A DNA stretch of 64,000 nucleotides from a virus (Duplodnaviria > Caudoviricetes). The notes under the pieces were generated by a model that ran no database searches, was not told where the DNA came from, and saw nothing but the letters and a program-made list of their open reading frames with translations. Each line of letters starts with the position of its first letter. Within the stretch, counting starts at the first letter, position 1. The position numbers and the translations under genes were made by a program. The DNA lies in the IMG/VR virus record IMGVR_UViG_2974601178_000001, positions 32,001 through 96,000 of that record. One strand, given 5' to 3'. Shown here piece after piece: positions 36,624-57,461 of this stretch.

Positions 36624-37289
36624 TTACAACAGGGTCTCATTTTCCTCATTTAAACTTTCTAAAAGTATATTTGCATGAAGTAGTAATCCGTTTTTGACAC
36701 GGTCGTCCTCTTGTTCAGAAGCTACTTGCAGGATGAGTGCGTGTTTGTATGTGACATAGGCTTCGTATGCTTGTTGCTCTGTTGGGTATCTTCCTAAGTT
36801 CTTTTGTTGGCCTGAACCGTCGTTACATTGTGCTAAGAATTTACCCCTGTCTTTGTTAAAATGCACACCTTTCTTGTAACTACCTCTTTTTGCGCCTCTG
36901 TCTGTTAATAATTTATTAACTTTACTACTAACAAAAACACAAGCATCGGGAGAATACACTTTATTATTAGGTAGAATTATATCTTTGTCTAATTGTTTAC
37001 CCTTCCGATCTTGGGTCTCCATCCATTGACGGAAGTTAGAGAATGTGTGCCATTCTTTGCAAACAGAAACCTCCTTGTAGGCAGGTTGTTTCTCCTTTGA
37101 TTTAAGACAGTACCCTCTCTCAAGAATACCCATCCACCTCGTATAATAGGGGCAACGAGTATACTTTCCGTTTACTTTTTGTGAGGTCTTATACCAAGAA
37201 TCATTCACCCCTACTCCATACAACAATGTTCTGTGAGCTAAATCTGATTTACTAGCAGTAACTCTCTGAAAATCATATTCTTCTTTCAT
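36624..37289 (-). CDS. Putative HNH-type homing endonuclease
   Basis: YGVGVND, VCKEWHTFSNF, LDKDII, YSPDAC, KGV...LGRY. Confidence 0.8.
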   Translation of the reverse strand: MKEEYDFQRVTASKSDLAHRTLLYGVGVNDSWYKTSQKVNGKYTRCPYYTRWMGILERGYCLKSKEKQPAYKEVSVCKEWHTFSNFRQWMETQDRKGKQLDKDIILPNNKVYSPDACVFVSSKVNKLLTDRGAKRGSYKKGVHFNKDRGKFLAQCNDGSGQQKNLGRYPTEQQAYEAYVTYKHALILQVASEQEDDRVKNGLLLHANILLESLNEENETLL

Positions 37290-53244: not shown

Positions 53245-53311
53245 TAACCAAAAAGCCCTCCCACGAGGGCATCCCCCTTCCCAACCAACCCCCTTTCCCC
53301 CAAATTTCCCC

Positions 53312-53340
53312 TTGACACCATCACACCTTTCCCTTAATAT
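53312..53340 (+). promoter_or_regulatory. sigma70 promoter
   Basis: TTGACA-17-TAATAT. Confidence 0.7.
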
Positions 53341-53394
53341 ATCTACTATCGAAGCAACATTGCTTCACAATTAACCATTTTAGGAGAAATAATC

Positions 53395-53598
53395 ATGACC
53401 AAATCAATAACCCGCTCAGAATCAGCTACTCACTCATTCAGAATATCTTATGGCAGCAAAGGTAACTTTGAATTAAAGTACTCTCGCATCAAGAAGGGTG
53501 CTGGAAAAGGTAAACTTCGTACAAGAGTGTTTTATCGGAAAGGTAATACTTTTGAAAATTTAACTTGGGGTTTAAATGAAAACATACAATGTATTTAA
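53395..53598 (+). CDS. Small basic protein; probable 5' part of a gene interrupted by the TnpB element
   Basis: SD AGGAG; ...RVFYRKG-NT then runs into TnpB; a compatible 3' part NTYVVCKNGEYNFKKETLL* lies at 55278-55337. Confidence 0.6.
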   Translation: MTKSITRSESATHSFRISYGSKGNFELKYSRIKKGAGKGKLRTRVFYRKGNTFENLTWGLNENIQCI

Positions 53599-55027
53599 AA
53601 CTTATAGGTTTGAACTAAGAGACCTATCTAAGAAGAAAATTAAATTACTAAATCAATCTTATAAACAAGCAGAGATGCTATATTATAAAGCACTATCTCT
53701 ATGTAAAGAAGATGCTGAGAAGATGTTATTAATTGATGATAAGAAAGAACGTAAGACGGAGAGTTACAAACTTGCCAAAAAGTTGCAAGCTATTGTTAAA
53801 CCTTTACCGTATTCAAGTGCAATTAAATCATCTGTCATAGAAGGTGTTAAAGCACAGGTATTATCTTATGTAGAACTAACATTATATGGGCAAGATGCAA
53901 CTTATCCAGAGAAGTTTGATTTAGAATATGATTATGATTATTGGTTGAATGTCCTTATTAACAGCGATTCAAAAGATATAGAAGACTTAGCAAGAGATGA
54001 AATGTCCCGTACCAAAGTTAAAGACTTCAGGCCACTTACTTATGAAAAGTATAGAACTAATGACGGATTTATGATCCTTGATAATGGAGAAGGTCGTTTG
54101 TATGCAATGTTGAGTTTATGGGGTGCTAAAGATAAACGAGCAACACCATTAGATATTAACATGATTGATACACGGACAGGAGAAGAATTTAAGAAGAAAA
54201 CTTCTTGTGGATTATTATTCCCATTGATGTGCTCTAATACTCAAAAACAAGCTCTTATAGATGGTCAAGCTAAGACAGCTAAACTTGTAAAACGTGGTGA
54301 CAGGTATTTTCTAATGGTAAGTGTTGCCTTTGAAGTAGAGGCTAGGTCACCAAAATATACCCTTGGGGTTGATAGAGGTATAGAAGAAATAGCTACATAC
54401 GTTGTACGTGACGAATCAGGTAAAGTTGTTGATAAGGGGAGTTTCTCTGGTGTACAATTACGTAACCATCAAAGAAGAGTGGAACTAGCACAAAAGAATA
54501 ATCAACGTGCAGGAAGAAAACGAGTGCAAGGTTGGAGTAATTACACAACAAACCTGATGCACAATTTATCTAATGAGATAGTGAAGGTAGCTGATAAATA
54601 TTGTTGTCAGGTTGTTATTGAGGATTTGAATAATATAAAGAATAATGCTAACATGAAACGTAAGAAAGGTGCAAGGAAGTCAAACTTTAGAAGAATGTTA
54701 TCTAGGCAACAGTATGGAAGGCTGGAGTTTATGTTAGAATATAAACTTAAAGCAAAAGGGTTACCTCCTTCTAAAAGTGTAAGGGCTGCCTACACATCAA
54801 CAACCTGCCCTAAATGTGGTAATGTTGATAAAGAAAATCGTCTGACACGAGATACATTCTTATGTAAAGTGTGCGACTACACTGAACACGCTGATATTGT
54901 AGGTGCTATAAATATTGCTGGAAAACAGTTGCACTTTGAAAAGATTAAAGGTAAACTTAAGAAAGGGAAACCTTTACCATATGAATTGAAGTATTCAAAT
55001 TGGTTGAAAGATAATTTAAAATTATAG
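53576..55027 (+). CDS. tnpB: TnpB/Cas12f-like RNA-guided endonuclease (483 aa)
   Basis: RuvC-I LGVDRG, RuvC-II VVIEDL, Zn ribbon TSxxCPKCG...CKVC, RuvC-III HADIVGAINI; D-E-D triad intact. Confidence 0.9.
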   Translation: MKTYNVFKTYRFELRDLSKKKIKLLNQSYKQAEMLYYKALSLCKEDAEKMLLIDDKKERKTESYKLAKKLQAIVKPLPYSSAIKSSVIEGVKAQVLSYVELTLYGQDATYPEKFDLEYDYDYWLNVLINSDSKDIEDLARDEMSRTKVKDFRPLTYEKYRTNDGFMILDNGEGRLYAMLSLWGAKDKRATPLDINMIDTRTGEEFKKKTSCGLLFPLMCSNTQKQALIDGQAKTAKLVKRGDRYFLMVSVAFEVEARSPKYTLGVDRGIEEIATYVVRDESGKVVDKGSFSGVQLRNHQRRVELAQKNNQRAGRKRVQGWSNYTTNLMHNLSNEIVKVADKYCCQVVIEDLNNIKNNANMKRKKGARKSNFRRMLSRQQYGRLEFMLEYKLKAKGLPPSKSVRAAYTSTTCPKCGNVDKENRLTRDTFLCKVCDYTEHADIVGAINIAGKQLHFEKIKGKLKKGKPLPYELKYSNWLKDNLKL

Positions 55028-55055
55028 TTGACTTCAAGTTTTAGTTAAGTATAAT
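55028..55055 (+). promoter_or_regulatory. sigma70 promoter for the TnpB-associated RNA
   Basis: TTGACT-16-TATAAT starting immediately after the tnpB stop codon. Confidence 0.7.
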
Positions 55056-55061
55056 GAACTG

Positions 55062-55300
55062 GGTAAATTGCTGAGTTACAATTAAAAATAACTTAGGGTG
55101 CATAGAGGTTTGTGAAGTGATTTATTAACCTCTTTATCTTACCACCCTTTTACTGAGGTTATCTTGTATGAGAGGATTTATCTTCCTTGAGTTAACTTTG
55201 GTATAAAATCTTACCTTATATGTGAGTAAGCAAAGCTTATGATCGGAGATATGTAATCGTGAGGTGGTATGAGATATAACACATACGTGGTATGTAAGAA
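55062..55300 (+). ncRNA. Putative omegaRNA/sgRNA-like scaffold (~55062-55280) plus guide (~55281-55300)
   Basis: Stems CTGAGTTA/TAACTTAG, AGAGGTT/AACCTCT, TACTGAGGTTA/TAACTTTGGTA, CTTAC/GTAAG; long-range TATCTTACCACC (55135-55146) with GGTGGTA(TG)AGATA (55263-55276). Confidence 0.65.
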
Positions 55301-55333
55301 CGGGGAATATAATTTTAAAAAGGAAACCTTATT

Positions 55334-55729
55334 ATGAATATTTCACAACACTTTGGCAAATTTACCAACTTACCGCAAGCATCTCGCACAAGTTTATTAG
55401 CTATTGCAGATGGGCACTTTCACTCAATTGATAACACTACTGGTCATGAGGTGTTTGCCATAAATAGAGGACTTGCACACTGGTTGCTACACAATTGTGA
55501 ACATGAAGTTCCTCCTTTGGAAAAGGCTCGTTCTGCAAGTATTCTTGCTCATCAATATTCAACTTCTGGTGCAAAAACCTCTTGGCCTAAGAAACCAATT
55601 GTGATAAACTGTGATGAAGCTCGTATCGAAGACGGAGTTACACGATTGTACGCAATTGCTTATGCACAAACGGAAGGTGTCTGTATGCCAGTTGTGTTCA
55701 AAACTGAAATTAATGACGAGGAAGAATAA
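55334..55729 (+). CDS. Hypothetical protein with ParB-N-like motif
   Basis: PIVI...IEDGVTRLYAI. Confidence 0.55.
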   Translation: MNISQHFGKFTNLPQASRTSLLAIADGHFHSIDNTTGHEVFAINRGLAHWLLHNCEHEVPPLEKARSASILAHQYSTSGAKTSWPKKPIVINCDEARIEDGVTRLYAIAYAQTEGVCMPVVFKTEINDEEE

Positions 55730-55730
55730 T

Positions 55731-56039
55731 ATGTGTAAAAAGGATCAATGTCAGCAAAAGTGTAAATCCTGTATAAAAAACTACACTGACGCAGAAGCAC
55801 CAATTAAACAATACAATATAACTTTAGAAGAAGGAAACCCTGCTATGAATTGGAAAGAACAACAGCGGCACGATGATATCATTCTTGAAATTGAAACTTT
55901 GTGCAAAGGTATCACCTCTGCAGAGAAGGATAAGCGCCTAGAGGAAGTGTCTGAGCTTGTTAAAGAGTTGCAGGGTACATTGGCTTATGCTGCTAAGATT
56001 GGTGTTGTCACAGACGCTTACAAACACTTTGTACGATAG
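55731..56039 (+). CDS. Hypothetical protein
   Basis: Likely start ATG 55731 after GAGG. Confidence 0.55.
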   Translation: MCKKDQCQQKCKSCIKNYTDAEAPIKQYNITLEEGNPAMNWKEQQRHDDIILEIETLCKGITSAEKDKRLEEVSELVKELQGTLAYAAKIGVVTDAYKHFVR

Positions 56040-56259
56040 GTGTTATTTTTAAAATTGTAGAAAAAGCAAATAACATTTGACAACAACCCAAATTATGTTA
56101 CAATGTAACAATATAGAATAAACAAGCACGTTAACGGAATGCAATATTCCTAAAAAGCTACGAGAGTGGCAAGGAGAGAACCTAAAAATCAAACGGCATT
56201 TTCGCCAATTAATAAAACATTTCAGTCCAATTGGACATTTTTAATAAGGAATAATATTT

Positions 56260-57417
56260 ATGACATTTTCATTTACCCCTGAGACAGCTTCTTCTGGTAA
56301 CACTGGTGGCGGTTCTGCAGTATCAGATGATCAATGGAAAGAATGGAACGATTATTACTACAGCTTACTTGATGGTAAGGAACAACCTCATAAGAATAAG
56401 CAAGGTGATATTGTAGAAGGTCGATTTTATAAGAAGAAGAAACTTGTAGGTAAGCTTGCAATGTTGGTGGATTGTGGTTTACAGCCTCAACCTGATTCTT
56501 CTTATGAGTGGAAAGGTGAAATTACAGAAGAGGAACATATTGCAAAGTATCCTGATAACTATTTCAAAACAGTTGATGGCAAACGTATGCAATTTAAACC
56601 TGAGCGTCCTACGCAAGAGTTTGCATTCTACTTCGACTTTACTAAGATTATCGTGGATTGGACTAAACATCCTATTGAAGCATTGCATAGTCTTGGTCAG
56701 AAGCCGTTACGTGTAAGCTATAATGGTTACTTTAAGAATAGTGGTATGGGTTTGGAAGGTTTTGCAAAACAGTTACGATTTGCCCCTAATTTCCGTACTG
56801 GTAAAGTCAGTCCAAATAACCCTATCTATAAGATTGCCACTGCGATGAATGTTGCAGATGAGTTTGAAAGTAGTAATTATGATTTCGGTAAACTGGCAGG
56901 TGGTCATTGTTTCTTCGATGTGTACATCACAAAGAATACCTACAACGGTAAATCTTACTATGATGCAGAAATTAAGAACTATTCTGAAATCACGGAAATT
57001 GAAGCAGGCGAGAACACTATCACAGTGGAACAACAAATTCCACAAAGTGATGTACCTTTTGTTGGTGTGACTCTTAACGGTGGTAATTATTCTGATGAAG
57101 TATTGGATATGGTTGCACACAAGAAAGAGCTGATGGCAGTGTTACCTCGTGCAAAAGCGTTCCAACCAAATGCAACAAAGAATCCTGACTTCTGGTTGGG
57201 TTGTAATTGGAAGGATAGTGACCTTTGTAAAGCTTTAGGGGATCGTGCTCCGAAAGTGGATAAGAATGGTGACAAGGTTCCTGTTGCTGGTACGGAAGTG
57301 GTGAAACCAGAGGTTGTTCAGCAAAAGGATAAAGTTGTACCGAAGGAAGATCCTGTGGAGGAAAGTTTTACTCCTGCGGAAGATAATTTCGACTTCCAAG
57401 ATGATGTGCCTTTTTGA
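56260..57417 (+). CDS. Putative single-stranded DNA-binding protein
   Basis: 385 aa in replication module, aromatic-rich, acidic tail ending DDVPF. Confidence 0.7.
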   Translation: MTFSFTPETASSGNTGGGSAVSDDQWKEWNDYYYSLLDGKEQPHKNKQGDIVEGRFYKKKKLVGKLAMLVDCGLQPQPDSSYEWKGEITEEEHIAKYPDNYFKTVDGKRMQFKPERPTQEFAFYFDFTKIIVDWTKHPIEALHSLGQKPLRVSYNGYFKNSGMGLEGFAKQLRFAPNFRTGKVSPNNPIYKIATAMNVADEFESSNYDFGKLAGGHCFFDVYITKNTYNGKSYYDAEIKNYSEITEIEAGENTITVEQQIPQSDVPFVGVTLNGGNYSDEVLDMVAHKKELMAVLPRAKAFQPNATKNPDFWLGCNWKDSDLCKALGDRAPKVDKNGDKVPVAGTEVVKPEVVQQKDKVVPKEDPVEESFTPAEDNFDFQDDVPF

Positions 57418-57461
57418 GGTAAATCAATAACTTAGCTTAAACACTATTTATTGCACATAAG

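Follow-up and report, generated by a model that had tools for sequence, protein, structure and literature searches.

A phage-borne miniature Cas12f-like cassette that probably carries a natural single-guide RNA

The guide RNA of Cas12f1 nucleases combines a long repeat:anti-repeat stem with a pseudoknot containing a short repeat:anti-repeat stem of 5–7 bp, which is essential in AsCas12f1, and its repeat-derived part is 28 nt long (PMC11246509). Cas12f1 enzymes are reported to prefer T- or C-rich PAMs (PMC12216341). In type II systems, tracr-L represses the cas9 promoter through an 11-bp match (PMC10120712), and for the mini-arrays and solitary repeat units borne by viruses, roles in regulation or in the conflicts of mobile elements with one another have been proposed (PMC10120712; PMC11656645). 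Cas12p nucleases are 500–700 aa long, use a GTN PAM and bind thioredoxin (10.1101/2025.01.20.633832). No report of a natural tracrRNA–crRNA fusion for a type V effector was found in the literature searched. Here we describe a locus that we read, with moderate confidence, as a phage-borne miniature type V-F-like cassette with a natural single-guide RNA.

The source record is a complete virus genome of 120,295 bp with direct terminal repeats, and the stretch analysed here (64,000 nt, hereafter the window) comprises its bases 32001–96000. Positions below refer to the window unless stated otherwise, and L numbers denote the loci and sequences compared. Pseudoalteromonas phage HM1 is a relative of the window phage, and the flanks at 53246–53357 and 55299–57434 are 83–93% identical between the two. 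Between these flanks HM1 has four small, unrelated ORFs, and the window has in their place a 67-aa ORF, a 483-aa ORF (53576–55027) and 306 nt of non-coding DNA. The 483-aa gene and the DNA downstream of it belong to a putative mobile cassette (Table 1) that is 94% identical to L165:3975–5708 and L177:2975–4708, two cassettes that occupy a different site in related phages. A genome-wide check of the window phage found no Cas1 or adaptation gene, and the complete 120-kb genome encodes no Y1 transposase or TnpA.

Two small ORFs lie beside the cassette. The 67-aa ORF (53395–53598) ends in a C-terminal motif, NLTW, that is common to a hypothetical protein of phage H101. We considered whether this ORF was a gene split by the cassette and resuming beyond it, and rejected the idea because the H101 homologue stops at the same place. 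Its last 27 nt before the cas12f start accompany the cassette in L165 and L177, so the conserved gene end may have been an anchor for recombination at the left end. On the other side, the 131-aa product of ORF 55334–55729 has no Pfam or NCBIfam match.

Table 1 Predicted features of the cas12f cassette and its guide RNA gene (window coordinates).
Feature	Position	Strand	Evidence
Putative mobile cas12f cassette (gene, promoter, tracrRNA, repeat remnant)	53549..55298	+	identity to L165, L177, L176
Cas12f-like RNA-guided nuclease gene, 483 aa	53576..55027	+	Pfam, PADLOC, conserved residues, AF2 model
Predicted sigma-70-type promoter of guide RNA gene, TTGACT-16 nt-TATAAT	55028..55055	+	11/12 matches
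Predicted tracrRNA scaffold, roughly 230 nt	55056..55283	+	covariance model R1, 225.7 bits
tracrRNA helix 1	55066-70/55079-83	+	consensus fold
tracrRNA helix 2	55094-100/55143-49	+	consensus fold
tracrRNA helix 3	55102-07/55130-35	+	consensus fold
Short anti-repeat CUUAC, loop between helices 3 and 2	55138..55142	+	covariation with repeat 3' end
tracrRNA helix 4	55151-66/55188-203	+	consensus fold
tracrRNA helix 5	55170-76/55181-86	+	consensus fold
tracrRNA helix 6	55212-21/55259-66	+	consensus fold
tracrRNA helix 7	55222-31/55235-44	+	consensus fold
tracrRNA helix 8	55248-50/55256-58	+	consensus fold
Long anti-repeat	55267..55282	+	complementary 15/16 to bases 1-16 of the relatives' 28-nt repeat
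Repeat remnant, repeat bases 13-28	55283..55298	+	14/15 identical to last 15 repeat bases (55284-55298)
Putative guide segment, flanking phage DNA, also 5' UTR of ORF 55334-55729	55299..55330	+	starts right after GUAAG

The 483-aa protein is a member of a CRISPR-associated, Cas12f-like family, nearest to the V-U3 profile and to the AsCas12f fold, and is not an IS200/605 TnpB. Its best PADLOC match, Cas12u3 (3.4e-33), runs over nearly the full length (residues 14–455), with several Cas12f models next. The sole Pfam match above threshold is the TNB domain PF07282 (1.9e-16) at the C-terminal zinc ribbon, and NCBIfam assigns the protein to a generic guided-TnpB family. The NCBIfam Cas12f2 score of 106 bits is far below the cut-off of 450 bits, which marks the nuclease as a divergent clade. 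A profile of 43 relatives matched solved Cas12f proteins at residues 205–450 only; identity to these proteins is 14–18%, and nothing in sequence matched the first 200 residues. For the AlphaFold (AF2) model (pLDDT 84), the top Foldseek matches were all to AsCas12f (the best, TM 0.58/0.66), OsCas12f and SpCas12f1, compared with TM 0.37/0.47 to TnpB and 0.36 to Cas12p. Membership of Cas12p was rejected on this fold comparison, and Cas12p was also absent among the sequence matches to solved structures. The RuvC residues D266, E349 and D440 and a CxxC..CxxC zinc ribbon are present; all 43 sequences keep E349, D440 and the four cysteines, and conservation at D266 is 90% or higher.

Genomic context points the same way. 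In a k-mer screen of full-length relatives (roughly 30–96% identity), periodic repeats adjoined the gene at 30 of 34 loci, so that the effector of this family typically sits beside a CRISPR array, of which the window retains 16 bases of one repeat only. A preliminary description of this DNA had taken the protein for a transposon TnpB. The arrays of the relatives, the lack of a Y1 transposase and the single-copy state of the locus, with one copy of the RNA and one of the repeat tail in the genome, all contradict that assignment. Array finders miss such loci, which is why the nuclease gene is mislabelled as a transposase.

The guide RNA gene has a promoter of its own, which starts directly after the TAG stop of the nuclease gene (55025–55027) and is the joint best of a 5-kb scan. 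The RNA model begins 29 nt past the stop, with no overlap with the 3' end of the gene. The position of the promoter, already noticed in the preliminary description, is kept at five of the nine close loci, and a sixth has a variant; L165, L172, L173 and L005 have the same promoter in the same place, and in L166 the sequence TTGACA-16-TAAAAT overlaps the stop.

The predicted RNA had been described beforehand as about 220 nt long with several hairpins, and comparison with relatives bears this out. The interval at ~55056–55283 aligns with the gene-to-array interval of L165, L166, L002 and L005, and the RNAalifold consensus comprises eight helices with 57 pairs that are kept in these relatives. Among five sequences, 21 of the 57 pairs showed compensatory changes, and 95.7% of cells were paired versus 40–51% in controls with slid partners. 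A covariance model was built from homologous loci, as the preliminary description had envisaged, and covariation was found for the consensus fold: across 15 homologues, 44 of 57 pairs were compensatory and 92.4% of cells were paired versus 39–49% in slid controls, values in which pairing is somewhat inflated as this alignment was fitted to the model. The model also matched RNA before the arrays of a Motilimonas chromosome (L003), a Veronia contig (L004) and L086/L088. It missed the tracrRNAs of clades at 30–40% identity, and those loci are left out of the RNA arguments made here. No Rfam family matches the RNA. The segment 55056–55283 is the tracrRNA of the Cas12f-like family.

The minimum free energy fold of the single sequence is unremarkable (z = -1.8; 9 of 200 shuffles fold as well). 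It includes a 12-bp duplex between 55135–55146 and 55263–55276, with a 2-nt bulge, that had been put forward as a tracr:repeat pairing. The duplex does exist in this fold, but it is unsupported in relatives, where no compensatory change was seen and 6 of the 12 pairs depart only through unpaired cells. It also takes up bases of both anti-repeats and of helices 2, 3 and 6, which are conserved, and so competes with them. Given this conflict and the lack of covariation, we rejected the duplex as the repeat:anti-repeat pairing.

The pairing that is conserved becomes clear from the relatives, in which the usual order is a tracrRNA with a terminator, a leader and one to five 28-nt repeats. In L165, L166, L002, L005, L173 and L175, an array of the 28-nt repeat with a 60-nt period follows the gene, and in the close clade it lies about 380 nt downstream of the stop. 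The crRNA of these relatives would be held to the tracrRNA by two stems, a long one of 16 bp and a short one of 5 bp beside the guide, as in Cas12f1. The long anti-repeat is the unpaired 3' tail of the tracrRNA; the best tracr–repeat duplex has an energy of -19.8 kcal/mol, equalled by 7 of 500 shuffled repeats. L003 and L086/L088 have the same geometry, with the tracr 3' end facing the repeat 5' end, at energies that are not individually significant. The short anti-repeat, CUUAC, is complementary to GUAAG, the final five bases of the repeat, and the two covary in four versions: CUUAC:GUAAG, CCUUC:GAAGG (L086/L088), GUCAC:GUGAC (L005, minus strand) and GUAGA:UCUAC (L085, minus strand). In L004, a loop CUUC accompanies a repeat end GAAG. 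CUUAC at 55138–55142 is thus predicted to form a pseudoknot with GUAAG at 55294–55298, and the predicted layout of long and short anti-repeats matches the published architecture of Cas12f1 guides. In the window and the L165 lineage, the CUUAC loop is also able to pair with 55263–55276, an alternative that could sequester it.

Against this background, the window carries a fused junction. The 94% identity to L165 spans 53549–55283 and ends within the last bases of the anti-repeat, a point past which L165 has a terminator-like hairpin, a 129-nt leader and two repeats. The window is without the leader, the array and repeat bases 1–12; its anti-repeat runs directly into repeat bases 13–28, and homology to HM1 starts at 55299, right after the remnant. 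The first four bases of the remnant close a short hairpin; a 7-nt linker and GUAAG follow. We count the remnant from repeat base 13, which is at once the final base matching L165. Compared with the repeat of the relatives at L165:5838–5865, the segment 55271–55298 is identical at 24 of 28 positions. The remnant is the only copy of the repeat in the 120-kb genome, which has no other repeat or tracr copy. This anatomy revises two further points of the preliminary description: what it took for a self-folding guide (55280–55295) is actually the 3' part of the CRISPR repeat, and the guide begins at 55299, 18 nt downstream of the start proposed there.

We read the junction as the product of a deletion. 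The anti-repeat and the 5' half of the repeat are quasi-palindromic, so that, read in direct orientation, the final nine bases of the two agree but for one extra A, and this near-identical direct stretch provides a site for deletion. Deletion there removed the terminator, the leader and repeat bases 1–12. The single transcript that results would begin with the scaffold and the long anti-repeat, continue with a truncated stem and the 7-nt linker, and lead through GUAAG into a guide taken from the flank. The fused 3' part can fold in two ways, either as the truncated long stem, in which GUAUG pairs with CAUAC (5 bp) around a loop of 10 nt, or as a repeat-like hairpin of -4.4 kcal/mol; at most 5 bp of the long repeat:anti-repeat stem are left. 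That so short a stem would suffice is an assumption made from engineered Cas12f guides.

A second occurrence of the junction came from an ENA scaffold of another sample (L176), which encodes an identical protein and has 0 differences from the window over 53549–55328, junction included. The right flank of L176 then differs by about 5%, next by 10–25%, and finally becomes unalignable, as is everything left of ~53488. A base-identical junction in an independent assembly with diverged flanks makes an assembly artefact unlikely, and the presence of the base-identical fused cassette in two phage backgrounds suggests recent spread rather than decay. Among the loci found, a fusion at this downstream position was seen only in the window phage and L176. 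At other positions, RNA fusion recurs in the family: extra tracr-like genes (L085:308–540, plus strand; L085:62–292, minus strand; L172, 1–467; L005:621–828, minus strand) are followed by a small hairpin and the cognate short-repeat motif within ~20–30 nt and then by unique sequence. They number two or three per cassette and are oriented outward or toward cas12f, some on the opposite strand; it is possible that they are additional natural single guides that bracket the cassette. The anatomy of a tracrRNA fused to a repeat remnant is very probably as drawn here. Because the tracrRNA is continuous with the remnant and the guide, the RNA would be a natural single-guide RNA, and the junction and the conserved promoter lend support to the preliminary proposal of a separately promoted, tracrRNA-like RNA of this kind. 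That proposal also saw an evolutionary intermediate between TnpB and Cas12f, and here the evidence runs the other way: L165 (96% protein identity) and L177 (in the same 90%-identity cluster) keep a separate tracrRNA, a leader and one or more repeats, and the arrays and split RNAs of the relatives make the single RNA of the window a secondary, derived state.

One further sequence, L170:1579–1600 (IMGVR_UViG_3300006921_001845), has an exact 22-nt identity to window 55280–55301 that covers the repeat tail, with the G specific to the window, plus AAC. Its chance estimate is 0.01–0.05 (rough). We set it aside as probable chance, as it lies inside an unrelated ORF without a nearby tracrRNA or other similarity.

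The guide starts directly after GUAAG, the position that spacers take in the arrays of the relatives. Its bases 55299–55329 match 31 of 31 in HM1 (L001:4001–4031) and in L171, a complete IMG/VR phage of 129.5 kb, and searches of both genomes found no Cas12f homologue. The bases 5' of the match are TCC in HM1 and L171, and the repeat tail AAG in the cassette carriers. At the second site, the vacant allele at window 36783 (minus strand) has CCC before the match, so both clean cassette-free alleles have YCC before a match that starts with AAC. YCC is therefore a possible PAM, proposed from two sites only and with an L165 junction that does not fit; a C-rich PAM would fit the diversity of Cas12f1. 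We propose that the repeat tail, lying where the PAM would be, protects the phage's own copy.

The spacers of relatives gave no comparable targets. A protospacer search covering the phage collection, IMG/VR and all loci of the analysis found none for the arrays or spacers of L003, L166, L002, L173, L175 and L165 or for the fused guides of L085 and L005, returning only self-matches and a weak match to a Vibrio phage (E = 0.1); no PAM can therefore be derived from them. The match of the terminal 'spacer' of L165 in the window phage genome was rejected as a protospacer, being flank homology. Within the window, no match to the guide, even partial, was found near the cas12f promoter or elsewhere. 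At genome position 100165 (minus strand), about 4 kb past the window end and ~13 kb from the cassette, the first 11 guide bases are matched after CAAAAC, which is close to chance (about 0.06 expected in the genome, an estimate).

We infer that the fused single-guide RNA would be transcribed and loaded by Cas12f, which would cut DNA that carries a guide match next to a PAM; the likely targets would be co-infecting relatives without the cassette. Retention of all the parts that are essential in AsCas12f1 guides, together with the spread of the fused cassette, makes function plausible, and we lean towards the fused RNA being a working guide. Its use against cassette-free phages is a more tentative proposal, to which we give somewhat less than even weight.

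The alternative that survives best is that the locus is a decayed CRISPR remnant, which has lost its array and crRNA and whose strong promoter would now mainly drive ORF 55334–55729 behind a long 5' UTR, with Cas12f either idle or using crRNAs supplied in trans by the host or a co-infecting phage. The layout of promoters and terminators gives this alternative some weight. A scan found no terminator between 55056 and 55334, and none after the guide, so the transcript probably runs on into ORF 55334 and the promoter may mainly matter for that ORF. In addition, HM1 has a promoter of its own immediately upstream of the homology breakpoint, in front of its homologue of this ORF, that is missing in the window. 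With this promoter replaced and no terminator following, transcription of the ORF probably now comes by way of the guide RNA gene, and the fused RNA would probably double as its 5' UTR. Loss of the long repeat:anti-repeat stem and the lack of an adaptation gene or any other repeat in the genome are likewise what decay would leave. However, the nuclease gene is intact with all its catalytic residues, the fused version is base-identical in two phage backgrounds, and the scaffold, the short repeat:anti-repeat pair and the adjoining guide are kept in an AsCas12f1-like order and spacing. Sister lineages also keep only a single repeat and flank: in L177–L180, four contigs from different samples whose proteins are cluster mates, a tracrRNA and leader are followed by exactly one repeat and then the flank, which suggests that the flank guide is the unit under selection. 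On balance we regard decay as unlikely, if a good deal less so than the alternatives that follow.

A regulatory single guide akin to tracr-L, with which Cas12f would repress a partially matching site without cutting, is quite improbable. Natural tracr fusions and regulatory solitary repeat units are known in type II and V-A loci (PMC10120712), and extra fused tracr-like genes lie just upstream of cas12f in L085, L172 and L005. The 11-nt seed match at genome position 100165 could also be read as a regulatory site. Yet it is a single match near chance and remote from the cassette, the cas12f promoter and the rest of the window have no partial match, the RuvC site is intact, and what the guide matches in other phages is the full 31 nt and not a short seed only. 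Least probable is an IS200/605-type TnpB with a separately transcribed omega-RNA, intermediate toward Cas12f: Pfam and NCBIfam do put the C-terminal half in the TnpB superfamily and the guide is flank-derived, as in omega-RNAs, but the relatives carry arrays and split tracrRNA and crRNA, the fold is closer to Cas12f by the TM scores given above, and the single-copy locus has no TnpA and an RNA that does not overlap the gene 3' end.

If the fused RNA is a functional single guide, as we favour, the borders of the cassettes suggest a role for it. Cassettes were found at two genomic sites, and each ends exactly at a repeat, whether one or two are carried. In L177, homology to the cassette-free allele (window 36783, minus strand) begins at the first base past the repeat; L165, at the same site, has two repeats, and homology resumes 2 nt past the second. 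L086 has one repeat versus four in L088 with the same flank, and L002 and L175 have a terminal flank in common with differing internal spacers. The cassette may thus be an RNA-guided homing element of lytic phages, a CRISPR–Cas12f unit that behaves like TnpB. This reading is attractive and rests on junction geometry and one identity gradient; we hold it tentatively, at clearly less than even probability. As the terminal repeat or fused tail abuts the flank of the insertion site, the last guide would be directed against the vacant allele of co-infecting relatives, and repair of the cut by recombination would copy the cassette into that allele. New sites might be invaded when an array spacer recombines with its protospacer, which would account for the position of every junction at the repeat/spacer boundary. 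The single-guide fusion of the window phage would then be the most streamlined form, with one protein and one RNA. The two sites that end at repeats, the single-repeat sisters and the identical cassette in diverged backgrounds make the homing idea testable, with two cultivable-type Pseudoalteromonas phages.

The relatives offered two further observations. Window 36764–36783 (minus strand), inside ORF 36624–37289 (minus strand), is the vacant allele of the site occupied in L177–L180 and L165; the first 20 positions include 5 mismatches to the L177-type flank guide, and the window phage may therefore be an escape variant there. In L086:1100–1260 and L088:680–840, another structured segment, with a long-range stem of 15 bp, lies between the array and the cas gene. 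A degenerate copy of the repeat forms its end, immediately before the effector gene, and the segment may be a regulatory solitary repeat unit.

Among known systems, the cassette is most like the V-U3-group Cas12f1 enzymes (AsCas12f1, SpCas12f1 and OsCas12f1), with which it has in common a small effector with RuvC and a zinc ribbon, and a guide RNA of roughly 200 nt with a long stem, a 5-bp pseudoknot stem by the guide and a 28-nt repeat part. It differs in its low protein identity, in the natural fusion of its RNAs and in being of a family encoded by lytic-type marine phages, with arrays of 0.6 to 5 repeats and no cas1. If active, a single deletion has yielded a natural version of the truncate-and-link guide design of engineers, and the 483-aa nuclease with its native guide of roughly 240 nt is a candidate compact editor. 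As in tracr-L of S. pyogenes Cas9 (PMC10120712), the tracrRNA is continuous with a repeat-like and a spacer-like segment to give one natural guide; unlike tracr-L, the system is type V, with an intact nuclease, a full-length guide match in other phages and no promoter match. In having so few repeats, down to a single one, within a phage genome, the cassettes recall viral mini-arrays and solitary repeat units, although most of those described borrow the effector of the host, whereas here the effector and tracrRNA travel with the repeat. Cas12p ('Cas12 hacker', 10.1101/2025.01.20.633832) is likewise a miniature phage-borne Cas12 that uses a tracrRNA and crRNA, but the window nuclease is of a different family. 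Finally, the cassette resembles IS200/605 TnpB acting with an omega-RNA as a homing nuclease (PMC10690162): the guide is read from DNA that flanks the right end of the element, the element's own copy would be protected by element sequence at the motif, and the vacant site in relatives would be the target. In contrast to IS200/605 TnpB, the cassette has no TnpA and its RNA lies clear of the gene; its family is associated with CRISPR arrays, whose spacers are exchangeable, and spread of the window cassette would depend on phage recombination in co-infection. The comparison raises the idea that viral CRISPR–Cas12 cassettes can retain or recover the selfish logic of homing that their TnpB ancestors had.
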